Source: Candidatus Methanophagaceae archaeon (lineage in GTDB: Archaea > Halobacteriota > Syntropharchaeia > Alkanophagales > Methanospirareceae). Taken from it: 32,000 nucleotides of DNA. The notes below the pieces were generated by a model. It did not search any database. It saw only the letters and a program-made list of their open reading frames with translations, and had not been told where the DNA came from. The stretch is from NCBI GenBank assembly GCA_003194425.1, contig PQXB01000001.1, positions 460,444 through 492,443 on the forward strand, in the 5' to 3' direction. How positions within the stretch are numbered: the first letter of the stretch is position 1; each line of letters starts with the position of its first letter. This document shows positions 4,042 to 31,834 of this stretch, piece after piece. The position numbers were made by a program, and so were the translations under genes.

Positions 4042-4065
4042 AATAAATAAAAGGGGGAATAAGAG

Positions 4066-4626
4066 ATGGAGAATGGATTTGAGAAGGAGATGCTGGAGCA
4101 GATATTGAGGGCTACCTCTTTGAAGTCATTGATTTATTTGGAGGTCTTTATCGGCAGGGTGGTCAAACTTGAATCGTTGTCCATCCACTGGACATCAGAG
4201 CAATTGGGGCGAGAGACAGAAAAAGATTCTCTTATTTCCCAGATAGAGTTAAGAGAAGGCGAAAATCTGGTAGGAAGCATTCATCTTGTCTTCCCGCGTG
4301 AAATGGCGTTTCAAGTTGCGAAGGAGATGTATGAGGATTTGATTCCCGAGATTTCTGAAAGGCATGTTTTGGATATGCTCGAGGAGATGACAAATATTAT
4401 CTCCGCTCCTCTAACCGAGGCGATCACTTTCTGCCACCACACAACAGTCCTTCCTTCGGTTGCTCGTGTAATGAGTCCGGAGGAGTTCAAATCTTCGCCT
4501 GTAGATGGGGGTTTGGTCTTGGAAGTAAAGATGGACGGGGAAATGAGGGGGGGTATTTTCTTTGTGATGGAGAAAGGGACGGTAAAGAAGATAAGGAGAA
4601 TGCTGAAAATGAAGGCGCGGGGGTGA
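4066..4626 (+). CDS. CheC/CheX-family-like protein (putative CheY-P phosphatase)
   Basis: A single D-x3-E-x2-N motif (LDMLEEMTNIISAP) is followed by a Pro about 20 residues later. The gene lies between cheY and cheB. The rest of the sequence is not recognisable. Confidence 0.5.
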   Translation: MENGFEKEMLEQILRATSLKSLIYLEVFIGRVVKLESLSIHWTSEQLGRETEKDSLISQIELREGENLVGSIHLVFPREMAFQVAKEMYEDLIPEISERHVLDMLEEMTNIISAPLTEAITFCHHTTVLPSVARVMSPEEFKSSPVDGGLVLEVKMDGEMRGGIFFVMEKGTVKKIRRMLKMKARG

Positions 4627-5741: not shown

Positions 5742-7538
5742 ATGGTTGATCTCTCAAAATATAAAGAACTGTTTGTAGACGAGTCGAGGGAGCATCTCCA
5801 ATGTATAAGCCGAAATCTGCTGGCTTTGGAGAAAGAACCAAAGAGCGAGAGCAAGAGCACAGACGCGTTAAATGAAATATTTCGGGAAGTGCACACGCTG
5901 AAAAGTATGGCTGCTACGATGGGTTGCGGGGAGATGGAAAAATTAGCACACGAGATGGAGAACGTGCTTGACGGGCTGAGGAGAAGGGGCGGGCTTGAGA
6001 AAGGGGAAGGGACAGTTGATGTTCTGTTAGAATGCCTTGACGGGCTTGAGACGCTTGTCGAAGGGGTCGCGACCGGGAAGACGGTTAGCCGAGATTTGAC
6101 GAGTCTGTATAAAAAACTGGAAAATGTAGCAGTGTCAACCGCTACAGCAGCGGAGGAAAAGGAGGGAGAGAAAGTAGAGGAAGGGAAGGAGGAAGGAAGG
6201 AAGGTAGAAGCTGAGAGGGAGGGAGAGGGAAAGGAGGAAGAGAAGGAGGAGGAAGAGAAGGAGGAGGAAAAGGAGGAAGGAAGGAAGGTAGAAGCTGAGA
6301 GGGAGGGAGAGGGAAAAGAGGAAGAGAAGGCAGCAGGAAGGGTTGGTCCTGCAATACGGTTGGGGGTAGAAAAGATACAGGCATTGCAGAACCTTGCGGA
6401 GGAATTGGCGATAGCAAAGATGAGGCTTCTCCAGATTGCGTCAGCCTCAAAACACGCCAGCCCTGTCCCTGAACTCAACGAGATAACCGCCACAATCGAC
6501 CGGCTCACATCAGAACTGCAGGACAAAGTAATGCGAATGCGGTTGTTCCCGGTTGGATTCCTATTTGACAGGTTTCCACGAGCCGTCAGGGATTTAAGCA
6601 GCAAAACAGGGAAAAAAGTAGCGTTCATTGTAACCGGTGTGGAGATAGAACTTGACCGTCTTGTGCTTGACGAGATAAACGACGCTGTAATGCATCTGCT
6701 TCGTAACGCGGTGGATCACGGAATAGAGAAACCAGAGGAGAGGAAAAAGGTTGGGAAGAAGGAGGAGGGGAAGGTAGTGTTGAGTGCGCGGAGAGAGGGT
6801 AACTCTGTTCTCGTGTCAGTCGAGGACGACGGTAGAGGAATGAACGTAGAACGACTTAAAAAGGTAGCGGTTGAACGAGAAATCATAACAAGCGAGGAGG
6901 CGTCAAGGATGAAGGAGGAGGAGGTTTATGAACTTCTTGGTGCGCCAGCGGCAGGACTGAGTACGGCGAAAAAAATCACGGATGTTTCAGGCAGGGGTGT
7001 GGGTTTTGATGTGGTGAAATCGAAAGTTAGATCGCTGGGTGGAAGCGTCAAAATATCGTCAGAAAAAGGAGGGGGGACAAAAGTTGAATTGCGTCTGCCT
7101 TTGACTACAGCGATTATTCGTTCTCTGCTCGTTGGCGCTGGAGAGGAGAAATACGCTATTCCGTTGGATTCGGTAAGGGAAATAGTGGCGGTTGGAGAGG
7201 TTGAAGGAAAAGAGAATTTTAGATATCGGGGGCGGGTTCTGCCACTGCTGAGGCTGAAAAAGATTTTGGACATTCCTGGTTCTGGAGACGACGAGAACGA
7301 GAAAGACGAGAAAGATGAGAAAGACGAAAAAGAAAAGGGTAGGTTGGGATCCGTTGTCGTGGTGGAAAGAGACGACAAATTGTTTGGGATTCTGGTGGAG
7401 AGACTTGTTGGTCTGCAGGAGACGGTAGTAAAGCCGTTGGAAGGGCTGCTCAAGGACAGGCAGGGGTTTGCAGGCGCGACAATTCTCGCCGACGGCTCGG
7501 TTGCACTCATTTTGGATGTAGGCGAGTTGGTGCAGTAG
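5742..7538 (+). CDS. cheA: chemotaxis histidine kinase CheA
   Basis: HPt His box (EVHTLKSMAATMG), N box (HLLRNAVDHGIE), G1 (VEDDGRGM), G2 (GRGVGFDVV) and a C-terminal CheW-like P5 domain. E/K-rich low-complexity linkers are present. Confidence 0.92.
   Translation: MVDLSKYKELFVDESREHLQCISRNLLALEKEPKSESKSTDALNEIFREVHTLKSMAATMGCGEMEKLAHEMENVLDGLRRRGGLEKGEGTVDVLLECLDGLETLVEGVATGKTVSRDLTSLYKKLENVAVSTATAAEEKEGEKVEEGKEEGRKVEAEREGEGKEEEKEEEEKEEEKEEGRKVEAEREGEGKEEEKAAGRVGPAIRLGVEKIQALQNLAEELAIAKMRLLQIASASKHASPVPELNEITATIDRLTSELQDKVMRMRLFPVGFLFDRFPRAVRDLSSKTGKKVAFIVTGVEIELDRLVLDEINDAVMHLLRNAVDHGIEKPEERKKVGKKEEGKVVLSARREGNSVLVSVEDDGRGMNVERLKKVAVEREIITSEEASRMKEEEVYELLGAPAAGLSTAKKITDVSGRGVGFDVVKSKVRSLGGSVKISSEKGGGTKVELRLPLTTAIIRSLLVGAGEEKYAIPLDSVREIVAVGEVEGKENFRYRGRVLPLLRLKKILDIPGSGDDENEKDEKDEKDEKEKGRLGSVVVVERDDKLFGILVERLVGLQETVVKPLEGLLKDRQGFAGATILADGSVALILDVGELVQ
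6187..6331 (+). repeat. 84-bp period in-frame tandem duplication in the CheA P1-P3 linker
   Basis: aggaggaaggaaggaaggtagaagctgagagggagggagagggaaa occurs at both 6187 and 6271. Confidence 0.85.
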
Positions 7539-7603
7539 TTGGTGCAGTAAAAGGAGGCTTCCGCTCCTTAATAGAGACTTAATAGAGAGACAGCTAGAAG
7601 AAA

Positions 7604-9073
7604 ATGAGGGTGTGGCTAAAGAACGGCACGGTTTACGACCCTGCGAACGGGATAAACGGCGAGCGGTTGGACATTTTCGTTGCCGACGGGAAAATCGTGG
7701 AGGAGCCAAGAGAAAAAGAAAAGACGAGAATAATCGACGCAGCTGGCAAGGCGGTACTGCCAGGCGGAATTGACCCACACAGCCACGTGGCGACTTACGG
7801 GCTGAACTTGGCGAGGTTCTTGTTCGGGTTTCCGACGGTGAGCGAGGTGGGCGGTGCTTACGCTAAAATGGGCTACACGCACGTGAACGAGCCGTTAATG
7901 ACTTTGAACACCGCGAACTACGTGCACCACGAACTCAGCTGCATTCCAATTTTGGACACTTCCGCGTTCCTCGTTCTAAACCTGCTCGAGATTGAGAAGG
8001 AAATTCGAGAGGGCGAGAAGGAGGCGGTTGAGAACGCGGTTCTTTTTCTCCTAAACCTCACGAAAGCGGTCGGCGTTAAGATTTACGACACGAGGGTGAA
8101 GTACGCGAAGAAAGGCTTCTTTTACAGGGGAGTGAGCAGGGCGAAGTGTCTAAATTTTTTTCGCGGGGCGGTGCCGAGGGTGCAGTTGAGGACGACTCCG
8201 GAGTTGCTGGACGAGGACACGGAGGTCTTGAGCGGCTTCTGCCTGACTAACCTCGCGGCAGGCGTTGACAGCGAAGAGAGGTGGGAGGCGGCGAAAGAAG
8301 TGCTGAAGAAAGGCGGGTCTGCCGACCTCGGCGTGAAGAAAGGCGTTTCCGCCGACTCTGTCGAGAAATTCGTTAGCGTGGACGTTGGGTTAGAGCAGCC
8401 GTTGGTGTTTTCGAAGCCGAGCGAGAGCGGGAAAGTGGAAGCGGGGTCGCTGAGGTTCGCACTCGAGGCTTTGGAGTTCTTGAGGTCAGGTTCGGGTTCG
8501 GGCTGCTGCGTCTCGTTCTCAACCGACAGCCCCTTCGGACTCCCTTTTTGGTCTTACCCCAAAATATTCGCAAGCCTGCTGAACCGCGAGAACGGGTGTT
8601 CGCTCTACGAACTCGCAGAACTCACGAGAACGAACCCTGCGAGGCAGCTCGGCTTGCTACAGCAGAACAACGGCAAAGGCAACGGCAAAGGCAACGGCAA
8701 AGGCAACGGCAAAGGCAACGGCAAAGGCAACGGCAAGGGACACCTGGGCGTTGGTGCGGACGCGGACATTGCAGTCTACGACCTCGACGAAAAAACAGGG
8801 AGAGCAGAGTTAGAGAGGCGGCTGGGCTGTTGCGAGTGGCTCTTGAAATCTGGCGAGGTTGTAGTCCGTGCAGGCAGGCTGTGTAAAAGTGCGGGCAGTG
8901 CAAAGAAGAGGTCTTTTTTTTTCGTGCCGAAGACTAAGGCGAGAGAGACCGAGAGAGAGACCGAGAGAGAGTCAGAGAAAGAGACCGAGACGGTGCGGAG
9001 AATCTGCAACCGACGGTCGTTCCGAGCAGAGCACCTCAAGGTCTTCACTGCACAGGCACATTTTGCGAAGTAG
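7604..9073 (+). CDS. amidohydrolase resembling formylmethanofuran dehydrogenase subunit A (FwdA/FmdA-like), not next to other fwd genes
   Basis: The N-terminus is LKNGTVYDPANGINGERLDIFVADGKIVE...LPGGIDPHSHV (HxH metal motif). The C-terminal part has HLGVGADADIAVYD. This pattern is remembered from FwdA proteins and has not been search-verified. Confidence 0.65.
   Translation: MRVWLKNGTVYDPANGINGERLDIFVADGKIVEEPREKEKTRIIDAAGKAVLPGGIDPHSHVATYGLNLARFLFGFPTVSEVGGAYAKMGYTHVNEPLMTLNTANYVHHELSCIPILDTSAFLVLNLLEIEKEIREGEKEAVENAVLFLLNLTKAVGVKIYDTRVKYAKKGFFYRGVSRAKCLNFFRGAVPRVQLRTTPELLDEDTEVLSGFCLTNLAAGVDSEERWEAAKEVLKKGGSADLGVKKGVSADSVEKFVSVDVGLEQPLVFSKPSESGKVEAGSLRFALEALEFLRSGSGSGCCVSFSTDSPFGLPFWSYPKIFASLLNRENGCSLYELAELTRTNPARQLGLLQQNNGKGNGKGNGKGNGKGNGKGNGKGHLGVGADADIAVYDLDEKTGRAELERRLGCCEWLLKSGEVVVRAGRLCKSAGSAKKRSFFFVPKTKARETERETERESEKETETVRRICNRRSFRAEHLKVFTAQAHFAK
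8669..8740 (+). repeat. 6 x 12 bp in-frame repeat (aacggcaaaggc, NGKG) in the FwdA-like gene
   Basis: Five perfect units plus one variant unit (aacggcaaggga). Confidence 0.95.
8945..8992 (+). repeat. 4 x 12 bp in-frame repeat (gagaccgagaga family) in the FwdA-like gene
   Basis: gagaccgagaga x2, then gagtcagagaaa and gagaccgagacg. Confidence 0.9.
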
Positions 9074-9425
9074 GATGGATTTTGGTTTAAGAGGGAGGGA
9101 AAAAGAATTAATAAATTTTTCTCGTACTTTTTGAGAATTGTCGTAATTCGTATTAATTAAAAAAATAAGCACGCAGAGAGAAGCTTCTCCTTTTTGGAGG
9201 CTTGAAAAAAACCGAAAATCATTTTTAGAGGAGCGAAAAATGTACAAAACACAATGAAAAATCTAAAAATTAGAATGGAAAAATGGCGAAACGGGAAAGC
9301 GAAAGTAAGGGAGTGTGTAAGCAAAATTTCGGGAATTTCGTTTCGAGCGGAGCGGGGGGGGGGGTGAAAAAATTAATAAATTTTCTACCCTCTTCCTCGC
9401 GTTTCTTGTTGTAGCTGCAGCGGCG

Positions 9426-10658
9426 GTGCTGGTCGTGCCAGCGCAGGCGTACGTGGGGCAGGGCGAAGGAGGAGCGACGGTCGTTCTGTGGCATTTTAAC
9501 GAGGGAGCGGGAGATGGAACGAAGGATTTCTCTGGTCACTGCAATTCTGGGGAAATCACAGAAGCAAAGTGGACTGACGGCAAGTTCGGATCTGGGTTGT
9601 ATTTTGAAGAGAAGCAGGTAGTTGGCGCGAGAGATTCCAAGAGTTTCAGTCTGATCCCAAAGGCGAACCAAGTTACACTTGAAGCCTGGGTCTTCCCTGC
9701 GAAAGAAACCAAAGAAAGTCTGATAATTTTTAAAGACAAGGAGTACAAACTTGGTTTGGTAGAAAATCTCGTCTTCTTCCAAATCTGCTCCAAAGGCGAG
9801 TGGCAGAAGCCTCATGTCTGTGAGAAGAAGAAGTTAGACACGGAGCGGTGGCACCACGTGTCCGCGAGCTTTGACGGCAAGGTCACCAAAATCTTCGTTG
9901 ACGGCTGTCAGAATTACGAAAGTTACGAGGACACTGGAAAGCAAATAACCGATTCCAAAAGTCCTTTCTTCGTGGGCGGAGACGGTGAAGGTGGCTACGG
10001 TTGGGTTGGCAGGATTGACGAGGTTCGGGTCTTGTGCAGGGCACACTCTGCCTTCAACGGTGGCGTAGTTCTGAACGAGGTCTGCTGGAAGGACCCTAGT
10101 GACGGATCCCAGTGGATTGAACTTCACAATCACGGCGGTGTGGATGTCAATATTCGCGGCTGGCTCTTTTTGGATGACGAAGGAAATAAGCTTGCTAACT
10201 TTGTTGAGCAGGATAAAATCATCAGGGCAGGCACCTGGGAGGTTTTGTATAAAATAGAGAATCTTGAAGCTCAGGATTCCATCAGAGCCTACGACCTTGA
10301 TCCCGATAACGATGGTAGTGATGTTCTCGTAAAACCGAATTACGCCAACCTGGTGGACTTCGTCGCGTGGGGCGAGAAAGTAAGCTCTAAAGAATACAAC
10401 GATGGTGGAGACGATGCCGTGAGAGCCGGGTTCTGGACTGCGGGTGAGTATGTCAGGGTCAACACTGGTGCTGGTGACGATGATGTTTACCTGAAAGTGG
10501 ACGGGAACAACGACGAGGCGGTGGAGGACTGGAGCACGAGAGGAGAGCCAACTCCGGGTGCGCCAACTCCGGATGTCTCGGCGCTCGTGCTGTTCGCGAG
10601 CGGGCTGGTGTTTATTTTGGTGTATTTTGTCTGGAGGAAGACAGCCTCACAAGACTAA
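9426..10658 (+). CDS. secreted or surface protein with a LamG-like (concanavalin-type) domain, a lamin-tail domain and a C-terminal TM anchor
   Basis: The lamin-tail-like core is VVLNEV..QWIELHNHGGVDVNIRGWLFLDD. The C-terminus is PTPGAPTPDVSALVLFASGLVFILVYFVWRK (TM helix plus basic tail, sortase-type signal shape). The GTG at 9426 is the track start. A signal peptide is encoded upstream in the same frame from about 9372 (see findings). Confidence 0.7.
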   Translation: MLVVPAQAYVGQGEGGATVVLWHFNEGAGDGTKDFSGHCNSGEITEAKWTDGKFGSGLYFEEKQVVGARDSKSFSLIPKANQVTLEAWVFPAKETKESLIIFKDKEYKLGLVENLVFFQICSKGEWQKPHVCEKKKLDTERWHHVSASFDGKVTKIFVDGCQNYESYEDTGKQITDSKSPFFVGGDGEGGYGWVGRIDEVRVLCRAHSAFNGGVVLNEVCWKDPSDGSQWIELHNHGGVDVNIRGWLFLDDEGNKLANFVEQDKIIRAGTWEVLYKIENLEAQDSIRAYDLDPDNDGSDVLVKPNYANLVDFVAWGEKVSSKEYNDGGDDAVRAGFWTAGEYVRVNTGAGDDDVYLKVDGNNDEAVEDWSTRGEPTPGAPTPDVSALVLFASGLVFILVYFVWRKTASQD

Positions 10659-10716
10659 CTGCCCTCACAAGACTAACTGCCCTCACAAGACTAACTGCCC
10701 TCACAAGACTAACTGC
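10645..10716. repeat. 4 x 18 bp perfect tandem repeat (cctcacaagactaactgc) spanning two convergent gene ends
   Basis: Unit 1 holds the TAA of the LamG gene (10656-58). Unit 4 holds the TGA of pit (10701-03, minus strand). Confidence 0.95.
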
Positions 10717-11720
10717 ACGAGCCGAAACGCAGCACCGCCGATTACCGCCGAGAGCGGAATCGTAATCACCCACGCAGTAACCATTTTCCAGACCTCGAGC
10801 CACCGAATCCGCTGAACGCCCTGAAAGAACGACCCGCCGATCACCGCCGAGCCGACCACGTGCGTCGTGCTAACCGGCATTCCCGCAAGGCTCGCCCCGA
10901 CCACCGCAACTGCAGCGCCGGTTTCAGCAGAGAACCCGTGCCGTGGCTCCAACTTCGTTAAACGCCAGCCCATCGTTTTCATCACCCGCCAGCCCAGAAA
11001 GAAAGTCCCAAGTCCCATCATCAACCCGCAAGCCAACTTCACCCACAAAGGCACCTCAAAGACCGAAATGAACCCGCCTGCGAGGAGTGCCATCGTTATC
11101 ACGCCCATCGCGTTCTGTGCGTCGTTCATTCCGTGGCTGAACGCCATAAAAGAGGCAGAAGCGATTTGCAGCCGCCTAAACACGCCCTCACTCTTGAACG
11201 ACGGCGTGCCCTTGAAGAACAGAAACAAGACCCAACTCGCGAGCGACAAGAGCACCGCCCCCGCCACGAACCCCACGAGAGGACCCAGCACGACGGCGAG
11301 GAAGACCTTGTCGGTGAGGACTGCCCAATTAATTATTTCTGCACCGCCCGCAGCCAGCCCAGCGCCGAGAAGCCCGCCGACTAAAGCGTGGCTCACGCTA
11401 ATCGGAATTCCGAACGCGGTGCAGACAAAGACCCAGACGACCGCTCCAGCGACGCCTCCTGCGACGAGGGCGAGCATTAGCGCTTCGGGAAGCCCAGGCA
11501 GGACAATTCCTTTCCCAATCGTCTCCGCCACCCTTGTAGAGACGCAGGCGCCCACGAGGTTGAAGACGCTCGCAAGCAGCAACGCCTGCAGCGGTGTCAG
11601 TGCTTTCGTCGCAGTTACCGTCGCAATTGAATTCGCCCTGTCGTTCGCACCGTTCAAAAAATCGTAGAGCAGCGCGAGAGCCACAATTAGAAGAACAAAC
11701 CCCAACGCCGAGCCCGTCAT
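10701..11720 (-). CDS. pitA: inorganic phosphate transporter, PiT family
   Basis: Two PiT signature motifs are present (DFLNGANDRANS and HGMNDAQNAMG). The protein is polytopic and glycine-rich. Confidence 0.9.
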   Translation of the reverse strand: MTGSALGFVLLIVALALLYDFLNGANDRANSIATVTATKALTPLQALLLASVFNLVGACVSTRVAETIGKGIVLPGLPEALMLALVAGGVAGAVVWVFVCTAFGIPISVSHALVGGLLGAGLAAGGAEIINWAVLTDKVFLAVVLGPLVGFVAGAVLLSLASWVLFLFFKGTPSFKSEGVFRRLQIASASFMAFSHGMNDAQNAMGVITMALLAGGFISVFEVPLWVKLACGLMMGLGTFFLGWRVMKTMGWRLTKLEPRHGFSAETGAAVAVVGASLAGMPVSTTHVVGSAVIGGSFFQGVQRIRWLEVWKMVTAWVITIPLSAVIGGAAFRLVQLVL

Positions 11721-11768
11721 TTCTCTGCCCCGTCCTGTCCTTCATTCATTTCAAGTCCTTCTCTCCTT

Positions 11769-12506
11769 TCAAATCCCGCCCTTCAGCCTGAAAGTCTCCA
11801 AAATATTCGCCACATCCTCGCACTGGTCCATCGTGTCCTCCAAAATGTCCACGATTTCTTTCAGCACCATTCTCTCAAGCACCTCGTTCGGGTCCGCCAC
11901 GGGTGCTGTCATCAAAATCCGCAGCCACTTGCGGTTGGTTTTGTCCGCCTCGTTCTCTAACTCGTTTATTCTGATGTAGCACCGCTCTAAAGTCGCACCC
12001 TCGCATTTCAGGTCTCTCAAGCAGCCCACTGCGGTTTTTATCTCCTGCGACGCCTCCAAAATAATCGGCGAAAATTCGCTCACTAATTTTGGAAGCTCTC
12101 CTGACTTTCCTGACTCGCCTGCCTGCGACTGCAAGTGAGCGAAGGTCAGCCTGCTCATCGCTTTTGTCACCCCGTCGATCACATTGTCCAAGTTGTGAGC
12201 GAAGTAGCGAATGTCGCCCTTCTCCTCCGTGACTCGCGTGTGGTCGTAGAACAGCCCCTGCAGGATTTGGTGAACGACCGAGTCCGCTTCGTCCTCCAGT
12301 CTTTCAAGTCGCTCGCTGGTCTGCGAAACTTTTGAGTAGTTCGTTCCAAGCCCGACTAACAGCCCCGCTGCCTCTACCGCCTTCCCTGCAAGGTCTTCAA
12401 AGAGGACAAAAAACTTCTTCTCGTGAGGCAGAAACGCGGACATTCTCTGCAAAACCGAATTTCCGTTTACGGCTCTCCCCTTCCGCTCTTTTTTCACGGT
12501 TTTCAT
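11769..12506 (-). CDS. DUF47/PhoU-like Pit accessory protein
   Basis: It lies immediately upstream of pit on the same strand. The helical protein has the FFxLFEDxAxKxVEA N-terminal signature typical of the COG1392 family. An alternative start is the ATG at 12443. Confidence 0.75.
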   Translation of the reverse strand: MKTVKKERKGRAVNGNSVLQRMSAFLPHEKKFFVLFEDLAGKAVEAAGLLVGLGTNYSKVSQTSERLERLEDEADSVVHQILQGLFYDHTRVTEEKGDIRYFAHNLDNVIDGVTKAMSRLTFAHLQSQAGESGKSGELPKLVSEFSPIILEASQEIKTAVGCLRDLKCEGATLERCYIRINELENEADKTNRKWLRILMTAPVADPNEVLERMVLKEIVDILEDTMDQCEDVANILETFRLKGGI

Positions 12507-12530
12507 CTTGGCTGTAGAAAATGGAGAGAG

Positions 12531-12540
12531 TATTTAAATT
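12531..12540 (-). promoter_or_regulatory. candidate TATA box for the DUF47-pit operon
   Basis: The minus strand reads aatttaaata, centred about 29 nt upstream of the ATG at 12506. This is consistent with a leaderless or short-leader archaeal transcript. Confidence 0.3.
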
Positions 12541-12637
12541 TTTCTAATTTTTCATATAAAACACGAAAAATATATAAATGTGTGTTGCAGGTGTCGTAGG
12601 AGGGTAGCGAAAAAGTTTGGTTATAAATTTAATTAAA

Positions 12638-13918
12638 TCAAACAGCAGCCCCGCAAATCTCCTTTATCTTCGCCTCCGCCTCTCTCGGACCCCGCAGAAT
12701 CAGGAGGTCGCCAGCTTTCAGCACTGCGTCGCCAGCCGGGTTGTAGATCCACTTGCCCCTGCCCTCGGCTCTGCGAATTGCGAGCACGAACATTCCTGTC
12801 CGCGTCTCCAAATTCAACTCCTTCAGCGTCTTCCCAAACAGCCCCTCGTTCCTCGCCTCCAACTTCAAAATCACCTCGTCCGACTCTTTAATCGACGCCG
12901 AGAAGACAGGGTGCAGCCGAATTTCCCGAAGCACTACATCCGCAATCTCGTACGCAGCGTCCGAAATTATCTCCGAAGAAATCGCAACGTGCAGCAAGCC
13001 CCGAAGCTCGCCAAAATTGCTCCTCTCCGCTCCCGCCCCCTCTCTTCCCTCGGTTACTCCTCTCGTTACTCCCCCTGCCGCCTCCAGCACTGCGACCTCC
13101 AACTCCTCCTTCATCCCGTCCATCGCCTCTTCCAACTCTTTCACCTCCTCCGCAATCTCCCTGCTCTCAAACATCACCGCCGAGTAGGAAAGCCCAACCA
13201 TCAACTCGGACACATTTTTCATCTCCGCGATGAGGTCCGCAATCTCTTCTGACACCCTTCTCCTTTTTAGGCGCCCCTCCTCTCTCTTTCTCTCGCTCTC
13301 ATACTTCTCGCAGGTCGCTAACTTGCAGAAGACTGGAATTCCCTCGGTCGGACCCGACGAAATGACCAAGTCGCCTTCCCGCAGTCGCTCGTTCTCCTCC
13401 GGCGAATACAGCCACTCAGAACCCCTTTTTATCGCCAGTACGCTCATTCCGGTCTCGGTCTCGAGCTGCAAGTCCTTCAGCGTCCGATCCTTCAAGACCG
13501 ACGCAGGCGTTATCCTCACATTTATCACAGCCTCCTCAAAATCCTCACGGTCGAGGTAGCGAGTAATGTCCACCGACTCTGCTATTTTCGCGATGTCGCC
13601 CGCGGCGTTTGAAATCTTCTCCGCCGCACCAGCCATTTGCAGCACCGCCGAGAACGCAACCGCGTCCTCCAAGTTCCTCGCACCCAGCATTATCGCAATC
13701 CGCACCTTGTACAAGAGCGAGTGCATCCGCTCCTCCAACTTGAAGACCTCCTTCGCAATCTCGGGGTTGCTGTACAGAACCGCGGAGTAAGCCAAGTCTA
13801 ACATCGAGTCCGACAAATCTTTCATCTCCACGAGCACCCCCTTCACGCTAAACGCCCCCGTCTCTAACCCCGTCTCTGACATTCCCCTCCTTTCCTCTTT
13901 TTTCTTTCTCTTTTTCAA
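12638..13918 (-). CDS. PhoU-like plus TrkA-C domain protein with a two-fold internal repeat (COG3273-type)
   Basis: There are two units of a helical PhoU-like segment (MLDLAYSAVLYSN.. / LMVGLSYSAVMFES..). Each is followed by a TrkA-C-like segment (LKDLQLETETGMSVLAIKRG.. / LKELNLETRTGMFVLAIRRA..). The probable true start is the ATG at 13882, preceded by aggagggga. Confidence 0.75.
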   Translation of the reverse strand: MKKRKKKEERRGMSETGLETGAFSVKGVLVEMKDLSDSMLDLAYSAVLYSNPEIAKEVFKLEERMHSLLYKVRIAIMLGARNLEDAVAFSAVLQMAGAAEKISNAAGDIAKIAESVDITRYLDREDFEEAVINVRITPASVLKDRTLKDLQLETETGMSVLAIKRGSEWLYSPEENERLREGDLVISSGPTEGIPVFCKLATCEKYESERKREEGRLKRRRVSEEIADLIAEMKNVSELMVGLSYSAVMFESREIAEEVKELEEAMDGMKEELEVAVLEAAGGVTRGVTEGREGAGAERSNFGELRGLLHVAISSEIISDAAYEIADVVLREIRLHPVFSASIKESDEVILKLEARNEGLFGKTLKELNLETRTGMFVLAIRRAEGRGKWIYNPAGDAVLKAGDLLILRGPREAEAKIKEICGAAV

Positions 13919-30991: not shown

Positions 30992-31000
30992 GTAAGAAAA

Positions 31001-31834
31001 ATGAAAGGTTTAAAAGGGAAGGGAAAACCTGCGGTAGTGGGCGTGCTGAAAAGCCTCTCCGTTCAGGAGGCGTTGCGAGCGAAGGAGAGCGGGGCGGACG
31101 CGGTAGAGTTGAGAATTGACCTCTTGAATTTAGATTTGGGGGAGAAGGTAAATTTGGAGAGGGGGGGGAAGGGAGAGGAGGAGGGAGTAGAGAAGGTGCG
31201 AGAGTTCGTTGCGAGATTCAAAAAGGAGGGCGGGGGACTGCCAATAATCGCGACGAACCGCAGAAAAGAGGAAGGCGGGTCTTTCGGGGGCACCGAGGAA
31301 GAGCGGGTTGGTCTGCTAACTCGCCTCCTCGAGACTGCGGAGCTGGACGCTGTAGACATCGAGTTCTTCGCTCCCGAGGCGGGGAAAAAGGCTGTTTTAG
31401 AAACAGCGAGAAGACACCGCAGAACCGTTATTCTCTCGTTCCACGACTTCACAGGAATGCCAAGCCGCGAGGAGATTTTGGAAATCGTTGCGAGAATGCA
31501 CGAGGAAGGTGGGGGAACAGGTGAGGGCGGGTGCGTTGCAAAAATCGCGGTGACGCCGAGGACTCTGGGCGACGCTCTGTTTCTGCTTGACCTGACCTAC
31601 AAACTCTCAAGCGAGGGGAAGGCGGTGGCTACGATTGGAATGGGTGCAGTAGGAAGGCACTTGCGAGTAGTTGCACCCCTCTACGGCTCTGCACTGACCT
31701 ACGGCTTCCTGGAAGGCGAAGAAGGCGAAGAAGGAGAGGGAGGGGAGGAAGGAGAGGAAGGAGGAGTGGCTGTAGCACCGGGTCAGTTTAGTGTGAAGGA
31801 GTTAAGGGGAATGCTGCAAAATCTAATCTTCTGA
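31001..31834 (+). CDS. aroD: 3-dehydroquinate dehydratase, type I
   Basis: GADAVELRIDLL, IATNRRKEEGG, ILSFHDF, AKIAV (Schiff-base Lys context) and GMG..G...RV..PLYGSALTYG. Confidence 0.88.
   Translation: MKGLKGKGKPAVVGVLKSLSVQEALRAKESGADAVELRIDLLNLDLGEKVNLERGGKGEEEGVEKVREFVARFKKEGGGLPIIATNRRKEEGGSFGGTEEERVGLLTRLLETAELDAVDIEFFAPEAGKKAVLETARRHRRTVILSFHDFTGMPSREEILEIVARMHEEGGGTGEGGCVAKIAVTPRTLGDALFLLDLTYKLSSEGKAVATIGMGAVGRHLRVVAPLYGSALTYGFLEGEEGEEGEGGEEGEEGGVAVAPGQFSVKELRGMLQNLIF
31712..31765 (+). repeat. 6 x 9 bp in-frame purine repeat (gaaggcgaa family) in aroD
   Basis: It encodes EGEEGEEGEGGEEGEEGG, inserted between the conserved LTYGF and APGQ segments. Confidence 0.9.

Follow-up and report, generated by a model that had tools for sequence, protein, structure and literature searches.

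The 32,000-nucleotide (nt) stretch of DNA analysed here, referred to as the window, carries on its forward strand a gene for a LamG/LTD surface protein whose reading frame continues upstream through a predicted signal peptide that lacks a canonical start codon. A run of eleven G residues (G11) and a run of six A residues (A6) lie at the junction with this signal peptide, and the subject of this analysis is where translation of the gene begins. The features concerned are the following.

9208-9232 (+), BRE/TATA-like leader motif AAAACCGAAAATCATTTTTAGAGG (AAAACCGAAA..TTTT(T)AGAGG), a putative promoter
9254-9367 (+), upstream open reading frame (uORF) 1, 37 codons from ATG 9254 to TGA 9365, passing through the G-tract
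9283-9414 (+), uORF 2, 43 codons from ATG 9283, in the frame of GTG 9364, with the stop TAG at 9412
9344-9408 (+), predicted mRNA hairpin, in which the G-tract, GUG and AAAA pair with UUUUC-UACCCUCUUCCUCGC and the apical loop AAUUAAUAAA holds the AUU
9345-9364 (+), hypervariable purine segment, GAGCGGAGC plus G11, 20 nt in the window
9360-9367 (+), Shine-Dalgarno (SD)-like GGGGGTGA, consisting of the 3' end of the G-tract plus TGA; compare the archaeal GGAGGTGA
9364-9366 (+), GTG, +1 out of frame with the signal peptide in the window species
9367-9372 (+), A6 run, fixed in the species
9372-9374 (+), ATT, proposed as the initiation codon and kept by every same-species locus
9372-9449 (+), signal peptide (M)NKFSTLFLAFLVVAAAAVLVVPAQA; the cleavage site is predicted to precede YVGQG
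9372-10658 (+), gene for the LamG/LTD surface protein (428 codons and a stop), which has Pfam domains Laminin_G_3 and LTD and a C-terminal transmembrane (TM) anchor

The body of the protein matched Pfam Laminin_G_3 (E = 4e-19) and LTD (E = 5e-8), the latter at 33.7 bits, slightly below the Pfam cut-off of 34.3 bits. Read back from this body, the main frame gives ..GGGGEKINKFSTLFLAFLVVAAAAVLVVPAQA/YVGQG (..EKINKFSTLFLAFLVVAAAAVLVVPAQA/YVGQG, the slash marking the predicted cleavage site) as far as the TAA at 9318. The layout appears to be that of a Sec-type signal peptide, with a basic n-region, an h-region of 10-15 residues and an A-x-A c-region: (M)NK-FSTLFLAFLVVAAAAVLVV-PAQA/YVGQG. The homologs P0002, P0003 and P0004 show a matching arrangement of n-, h- and c-regions ending in ..AQA/YVGQG, and QAYVGQG was found without variation throughout the homolog alignment. 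When compared with a sister species, represented by two contigs (L001 and L002) and a protein of 81% identity, the differences within the signal peptide follow a codon-wise pattern with one 3-nt indel. An exhaustive protein search returned mainly giant multi-LamG proteins, which did not inform the choice of start codon except in that signal peptides precede the LamG domain. The cluster of proteins at 90% identity includes OYT65217.1 from the Guaymas Basin genome 'ANME-1 cluster archaeon ex4572_4'. The sequence is best explained as encoding, in an uncultured methane-oxidising ANME-1 archaeon, a functional LamG/LTD surface protein that is secreted and membrane-anchored.

At the C-terminus (10530-10655), an invariant motif, E-x-TPGAP-x-PDVSAL-x-LF-xx-GL, precedes a TM helix and a basic tail and is retained in homologs with as little as 34% identity. 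The arrangement resembles archaeosortase or PEP-CTERM signals for sorting or anchoring; an NCBIfam search of the C-terminus matched no known sorting-signal family. Homologs of the gene form tandem arrays, as in L012 (467-6774), where four of five LamG/DUF2341 genes are joined by ATGA overlaps, and in the sister species a paralog of 730 amino acids (aa) lies directly after the gene (L001, 1398-3590).

Public assemblies differ in the length at which they call this one gene (407, 428, 454, 455 or 463 aa), and most of the models do not include the signal peptide, with gene callers either falling back on the GTG at 9435, whereby the signal peptide is lost, or adopting an upstream ATG. The public protein model P0001 (NCBI/nr) has 428 aa and the N-terminus MNKFSTLF..., and the public model for the window therefore already takes ATT 9372 as the start. 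Initiation at GTG 9426 or 9435, the usual choice of gene callers, was rejected, as it would discard the conserved signal peptide and as GTG 9426 is replaced by GAG in three loci. The SD duplex calculated for GTG 9426 was -1.7 kcal/mol. In the three loci with GAG at 9426-9428 (L007, L008 and L039, all carrying the GGGA+G7 tract described below), a Glu is placed in the h-region of the signal peptide (AAAAELVVPAQA).

The first-pass annotation had described the signal-peptide frame as having no canonical start and as being preceded by the G11/A6 junction, and every position in that description proved to be correct: ATG 9254, G11 at 9354-9364, GTG at 9364-9366, TGA at 9365-9367, A6 at 9367-9372, ATT at 9372-9374 and GTG 9426. 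Between the TAA at 9318 and position 9426, the main frame contains no ATG, GTG or TTG, and ahead of the hydrophobic core it offers a single near-cognate codon, ATT 9372. The same lack of a canonical in-frame start upstream of an indispensable N-terminal element was seen in all loci of the class designated A below, to which the window belongs. Two short ATG-initiated ORFs enter the junction, one in each of the two non-main frames. The 37-codon ORF from ATG 9254 is present as had been reported, and the arithmetic of the two proposed fusions was confirmed: removal of one G would join ATG 9254 to the main frame, and addition of one A would bring GTG 9364 into it. G11 is the sole run of G or C longer than 8 within the 32-kb window, where 0.017 runs of at least 11 would be expected by chance, and it is therefore not a chance feature.

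Other copies of elements of the junction were also observed. A 27-nt near-copy, GGGAGGGAAAAAGAATTAATAAATTTT, lies 265 nt upstream at 9093-9119 (+), extending to about 9160, and is 85% identical to 9358-9384. One of its frames reads GKRINKFFSYFLRIVVIRIN*, resembling the start of the signal peptide, with an ATT present and a canonical start absent; the copy is probably what remains of a duplicated 5' end. A second GGGGGTGA at 4619-4626 forms the stop of the ORF at 4063-4626, about 50 nt before a CheB-like gene, and a G8 run was found at 31161-31168 inside the ORF at 30992-31834.

The ATT at 9372 is separated from GGGGGTGA by a gap of 4 nt. Archaeal SD elements are complementary to the 16S 3' consensus AUCACCUCCU (PMC7531240), and duplex energies were accordingly calculated with the archaeal consensus anti-SD 5'-AUCACCUCCU-3', which may differ from that of the organism's own 16S. 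The duplex preceding the ATT reached -15.1 kcal/mol over 9 pairs, the strongest of the 26 window starts examined with this consensus. Among background 20-nt stretches sampled across the window, 0.18% reach -14 kcal/mol, placing the GGGGGTGA site in the top 0.2%. The match available to GUG 9364 was weaker (-9.7 kcal/mol) and left no spacer. The natural start of P. abyssi aEF1A consists of GGAGGUGA followed by 5 nt and AUG (PMC6237735), and the resemblance of the 4-nt gap to this spacing was counted in favour of AUU initiation. Other genes in the window carry GGGGG or GAGGGG 4-9 nt ahead of their ATG, and the paralog adjoining the sister-species gene has G6 at 7 nt ahead of its ATG. In Haloferax, ribosome profiling placed about 30% of putative alternative initiation sites at near-cognate codons (PMC7261190).

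Junctions were then aligned for 13 same-species loci, located on 12 different contigs (L028 being the contig of L011) from separate ENA, JGI and Logan metagenome assemblies, together with those of the two sister-species contigs. The A-run was of equal length in 13/13 same-species loci, and as these derive from separate assemblies, an assembly error is ruled out and A6 is fixed in the species. ATT 9372 was also kept in all 13, so that a near-cognate codon is conserved at an SD-compatible spacing, assuming the consensus anti-SD. In L003 and L004, a G-to-A substitution turns GTG 9364 into GTA with no change in length. The sister species reads G10 + TG + A7, a difference of one A in the A-run, and has the GTG in frame (GTG AAA AAA ATA ATA AAA TTT, encoding MKKIIKFS). 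A scan of GTDB representative genomes and JGI metagenomes for orthologs yielded the same species and, beyond it, only distant LTD/LamG proteins of bacteria, and provided no outgroup with which to polarise A6 versus A7.

The tract segment, defined as the stretch between TTTCGTTTC and T(G/A)A6, was the most variable site of the region, with eight configurations among about 14 assemblies, seven of them read from DNA and one from protein. Those read from DNA were GAGCGGAGC+G11 (20 nt, the window), GAGC+G8 (12 nt), GGGA+G8 (12 nt), GGGA+G7 (11 nt), G8 (8 nt), A+G7 (8 nt) and G7 (7 nt), while the eighth, G10, was deduced from the protein P0009/OYT65217.1. G runs of G7, G8 and G11, with or without flanking purine indels, were found in DNA and G10 through protein; A7 was found in the sister species. 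Class A is the commonest, with four of the eight configurations and, among the 15 distinct protein sequences that the cluster lists, 10. In it, the uORF from ATG 9254 ends at the UGA of GUGA and a canonical start is absent; this class comprises the window, L007-L010, L029, L038 and L039. Class B (two configurations; L003/L004 and L005/L011) has ATG 9283 fused in frame, giving the 454-455 aa proteins P0011, P0017 and P0019, and class C (two configurations; L006, with 463 aa, and OYT65217.1) has ATG 9254 fused in frame. Each configuration recurs unaltered across independent samples and different protein alleles, GGGA+G7 being shared by L007, L008 and L039, and G8 by L009, L010 and L029. This indicates stable alleles of an indel hotspot rather than random errors, and the recurrence argues indirectly for slower change, with no sign of rapid switching. 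The tract lengths of 7, 8, 11, 12 and 20 nt cover all three frames, a pattern expected of a non-coding position.

Taken together, the strength and spacing of the SD-like element, the conservation of the ATT and the tolerance of all three frames upstream of it best support SD-directed initiation at AUU 9372. The first-pass annotation had offered this as the third of three readings, alongside an upstream ATG controlled by the G-tract and the GTG 9364 reached by slippage, and it is the most likely of the three, resting on a conserved codon with the strongest SD match in the window at a suitable spacing, and on its use in the public model. We hold with moderate confidence that translation in the window species starts at this near-cognate AUU behind a strong SD, with the G-tract in the leader. 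Initiation would be driven by the unusually strong SD element GGGGGUGA (9360-9367), made by the 3' end of the poly-G tract. In the sister species, G10-UG-A7 would provide an in-frame GUG start (MKKIIKFS...), and in the window species one A fewer, fixed in all strains, would leave AUU as the sole usable in-frame codon. The poly-G tract would then belong to the 5' leader, upstream of the start, where indels are free of reading-frame constraint, and since the tract would grow and shrink at its 5' side, the spacing between SD and ATT would be untouched and all three frames would be tolerated.

The protein itself shows an unusual pattern of variation within the species. The LamG/LTD gene carried 6 synonymous and 23 non-synonymous variants (pN/pS 1.04), compared with the following counts in three neighbouring genes.

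PHO4: 8 synonymous, 2 non-synonymous variants
PhoU_div: 7 synonymous, 0 non-synonymous variants
TrkA_C/PhoU: 4 synonymous, 2 non-synonymous variants

The difference from the pooled neighbours (19 synonymous, 4 non-synonymous) was significant (Fisher P = 1.5e-5), and the non-synonymous diversity of the LamG gene, 0.024 per site, was about equal to the synonymous diversity of the neighbours. The dN/dS against the sister species was 0.25. Within the species, only 1/22 variable residues fell on family-conserved positions, against 34% expected (P = 0.0012), and 3/22 on hydrophobic positions (P = 0.007). Residue changes were mostly K/E, D/N and S/R, and at 12 sites the minor allele was present in at least two proteins, in reshuffled combinations. 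No stop or frameshift was found in 404 codons of eight full-length same-species alleles, the sole indel being of 3 nt. From this non-random variation, together with the absence of stops and frameshifts, we conclude that the gene product is functional and is diversifying, in line with a place in the envelope. Its translation, signal peptide included, must accordingly take place in a lineage without a canonical start. The gene (9444-10655) is a local diversity hotspot of recombining charge-swap alleles, and the phosphate-transport genes at 10704-13882 are under strong purifying selection.

Additional elements of the leader may modulate initiation. The BRE/TATA-like motif at 9208-9232 is among the few blocks conserved between both species in an alignment where the rest of the upstream region has diverged, and is a putative promoter. 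An ATG lies 22 nt past the end of the motif in both species, and for this reason the uORF could lack a leader and supply ribosomes for termination-reinitiation. The idea of a promoter inside AAAAAATTAATAAATTTT was rejected, as that stretch is conserved as coding sequence (K-I-N-K-F). The peptide encoded from ATG 9254 is not conserved between the species, the two versions being separated by a 2-nt indel; the differently coded uORF of the sister species (L001/L002) also ends at the TGA of GTGA, overlapping the in-frame GUG. Archaeal termination-reinitiation is established at overlaps or very short gaps (PMC6728339, PMC10666635), and class A alleles show such a spacing, with UGA 9365-9367 followed after 4 nt by AUU 9372, as does the sister species with its GUGA overlap. 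Termination of the uORF 4 nt before the AUU could thus assist initiation there.

The predicted hairpin could mask the SD and limit ribosome access. Its 3' arm consists of the pyrimidine-rich codons for T-L-F-L-A, with the SD and GUG buried in the modelled structure, and its minimum free energy was -31.4 kcal/mol (z = -4.0) in the window and -28.7 kcal/mol (z = -4.7) in the sister species. The hairpin was predicted in all haplotypes, at -17.7 to -31.4 kcal/mol, and was more stable with a longer tract. RNAalifold on eight alleles found 0 compensatory pairs, leaving the hairpin without covariation support, and an Rfam search of 8900-9700 gave only sub-threshold chance matches (miRNA and group II intron models) that merely mirrored the hairpin. 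As a G-run beside Leu and Phe codons will pair in any case, the hairpin may be a by-product. We regard it as doubtful, though conceivable, that the poly-G tract functions as a control element of variable length, making the gene an archaeal locus of the contingency or tuning kind, with tract length acting through the hairpin and the fate of the uORF. Tract length would then set the stability of the hairpin masking the SD (-18 to -31 kcal/mol in the natural alleles), with the AUU exposed in the loop, and would decide what becomes of ribosomes on the uORF, itself possibly leaderless: termination 4 nt short of the AUU with reinitiation, passage beyond the AUU, or direct entry into the protein. Tract-length tuning, uORF coupling and frameshifting are all conceivable.

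Several observations weigh against initiation at AUU 9372. Reviews list AUG, GUG and UUG as archaeal start codons, AUU not being routine (PMC7531240), and aIF1 discriminates against non-canonical codons (PMC6237735). The N-terminus is a prediction from sequence, and the signal peptide at that end is predicted to be cleaved off. The sister species has ATA at the homologous codon plus an in-frame GTG, and conservation of the Ile codon may be merely coding. The duplex energies rest on an archaeal consensus and not on the organism's own 16S, and the SD lies inside the 5' arm of the predicted stable hairpin, which would hinder 30S binding. Lastly, the within-species pN/pS of about 1 (6 synonymous, 23 non-synonymous), against 0-0.15 in neighbouring genes, is likewise expected of a recently silenced gene, and 4/4 changes within the signal peptide are non-synonymous, including V to E in three loci.

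This last point would be explained if the gene were a young pseudogene, recently silenced by a change from A7 to A6 and drifting since, with the absent start a sign of decay. The excess of non-synonymous variants over the neighbours, a non-synonymous diversity (0.024 per site) roughly equal to their synonymous diversity, and the changes in the signal peptide are all in keeping with this. However, decay would not be expected to leave 404 codons free of stops and frameshifts in eight full-length alleles with only a 3-nt indel, to spare family-conserved and hydrophobic positions, or to preserve a long G-run and SD in all alleles and in the sister species, and the recurrent K/E, D/N and S/R sites reshuffled among alleles are instead those of a functional, diversifying surface protein; we therefore consider silencing improbable. 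An error of sequencing or assembly, with a true A7 or a G count restoring a canonical start, had been named as the trivial alternative and is highly improbable. Long homopolymers are error-prone and the exact G11 count does rest on a single assembly, but for A6 this alternative is refuted by the identical run in 13/13 loci obtained with separate assemblies and assemblers. The tract configurations also recur exactly in independent samples, and the neighbouring genes of the window are intact, with 100% identity to L005 over the initial 1091 nt of the gene directly upstream.

The first reading given in the first-pass annotation is that of a contingency locus, in which G-tract indels move ATG 9254 or ATG 9283 in and out of frame and so switch the surface protein ON, with a basic N-terminal extension of 27-35 residues, or OFF, as in the window allele. 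G tracts of 7-11 are mutable in organisms using such switches, and here the tract is the most variable site, with its eight configurations, and precedes a surface-protein gene with diversifying, recombining alleles. Natural fusions occur to both ATG 9254 (L006 and OYT65217.1) and ATG 9283 (L003/L004 and L005/L011), a long n-region is present in the homolog P0036, and homopolymer tracts are enriched at gene 5' ends, archaea included (PMC2831843). The tract is indeed polymorphic among populations, yet it does not lie inside an ORF between a conserved start and the functional body, because no single upstream start is conserved in frame, different alleles fuse two different ATGs, and the commonest class fuses neither. 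That class would be OFF (10 of the 15 listed distinct proteins, 4/8 configurations), the two ATGs would give two unrelated extensions conserved neither within nor between species, the configurations recur as stable alleles and not as products of fast switching, several tracts are interrupted (GGGAG7, AG7) and hence stabilised, and the protein is still constrained at conserved positions. The variability of the tract is real, all three alternatives can be read from the sequence, and the ATG 9254 fusion occurs in some strains; a classical ON/OFF switch is unlikely.

The second alternative that had been raised, initiation at GUG 9364 followed by -1 ribosomal slippage on G_AAA_AAA or by transcriptional addition of one A, would yield MKKINKFSTLF..., a product matching the sister-species N-terminus MKKIIKFS. 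Lys-tRNA is well known to slip on runs of A; as a site of efficient transcriptional slippage, A6 is short. A_AAA_AAR shift sites have been proposed for archaeal Mg-chelatase genes (PMC5009743), and in Listeria inlA a 5' A7/A6 tract reversibly inactivates a surface-protein gene (PMC2831843). The agreement with the sister species (GTG AAA AAA ATA, MKKI...) holds, but slippage would be needed in the window species, and the initiating GTG is GTA in two loci (L003 and L004). The SD for GUG 9364, at only -9.7 kcal/mol, abuts the codon, G_AAA_AAA only approximates the canonical X_XXY_YYZ heptamer, and the 5-9 nt downstream form an AU-rich loop in place of the stimulatory structure of a -1 frameshift site; we give this explanation little credence. 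Less credible still is a +1 shift, in the manner of prfB, of ribosomes translating the uORF from ATG 9254, in which the P-site Gly-tRNA would move from GGG to GGU at GGG-UGA under stimulation by the SD-like G-run. GGG 9362-9364 and UGA 9365-9367 would then be read as GGU GAA AAA AUU in the main frame, with G11 divisible into an SD of 5 nt, a spacer of 3 nt and the shift codon GGG, and the product would equal the protein that class C strains encode directly; the position of the uORF ATG, 22 nt past the TATA-like motif in both species, fits a leaderless uORF. Such a shift, itself a reading of the sequence, would however serve only class A alleles, the sister species requiring -1 instead; G7 or G8 would leave little space for an SD plus spacer, and the uORF peptide is not conserved.

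SD-directed AUU initiation has parallels in known systems. E. coli infC and pcnB are AUU-initiated genes with strong SD elements, bacterial and tied to IF3 autoregulation, and ATT starts are annotated under translation table 11. The ANME-1 gene would resemble these in having no canonical start and a near-cognate AUU a few nt behind a strong SD, but it is archaeal (aIF1/aIF2), and its predicted SD is a length-polymorphic poly-G tract. Classical simple sequence repeat (SSR) contingency loci include the poly-G/C tracts of Neisseria, Haemophilus and Campylobacter surface genes. As in these loci and in the 5' poly(A) of Listeria inlA (PMC2831843), homopolymers stand at the extreme 5' end of a surface-protein gene, tract length is strain-dependent, and some lengths fuse an upstream ATG in frame; unlike them, the ANME-1 tract is not located between a conserved start and the body, occurs in all three frames, has the 'OFF' class as its commonest, and forms stable alleles. 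Similarity was also noted to H. pylori tlpB/RepG, where a strain-variable G-repeat lies in the 5' leader, and not the coding sequence, of a cell-envelope protein gene, and where repeat length can tune rather than switch expression (PMC8295292). In the archaeal case, the G-run itself would be the SD, with predicted pairing to signal-peptide codons, and there is no known small RNA partner. Lastly, the arrangement recalls archaeal ATGA/GTGA coupling (PMC6728339, PMC10666635), in that the sister-species uORF stop and GTG overlap as GTGA, the UGA here precedes the ATT by 4 nt, and distant homologs stand in ATGA-overlapping tandem arrays. It differs in that the upstream partner is a short, non-conserved putative uORF and not a gene, and in that the downstream codon is AUU.

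The surroundings of the gene also vary between strains. An exact tandem repeat of 18 nt x 4 (CCTCACAAGACTAACTGC) at 10645-10716 spans the LamG stop and the 3' end of the convergent PHO4 gene; strain differences in this region amount to 24 per 300 nt, and the gap called before the PHO4 gene is 6 nt in L011, 20 nt in most loci and 179 nt in L003. The 3' part of the amidohydrolase (FwdA-like) gene contains in-frame tandem repeats at 8668-8736 and 8941-8990, namely 12 nt x 5.8 encoding (GKGN)n and GAGAGAGACCGA x 4, and is the other hotspot of strain differences. When L009 (1-2700) was compared with the window (6300-9000), synteny was found to be broken just upstream of the gene's roughly 370-nt leader, with tRNA-synthetase, ADP-ribosylglycohydrolase and DUF1847 genes replacing CheA and the amidohydrolase, which suggests that the gene and its leader act as a movable or recombining unit.

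The practical outcome is modest: the best answer to the start puzzle is an ordinary one that public annotation already contains, and a phase switch is unproven. The locus nevertheless illustrates how gene callers mishandle such starts, and the archaeal setting and population-level support give it moderate interest, the tuning or contingency reading being of more interest if shown. If AUU initiation is true, the gene would be a well-supported natural archaeal start other than AUG, GUG or UUG, backed by population data and preceded by an exceptionally strong SD. To our knowledge, no genetic system exists for ANME-1. These archaea have a rich virome, and a strain-variable poly-G leader on a fast-diversifying ANME-1 envelope protein is of ecological interest as a case of surface variation. 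Should tract length tune expression, ANME-1 strains or subpopulations would express different amounts or forms of the diversifying LamG/LTD envelope protein.

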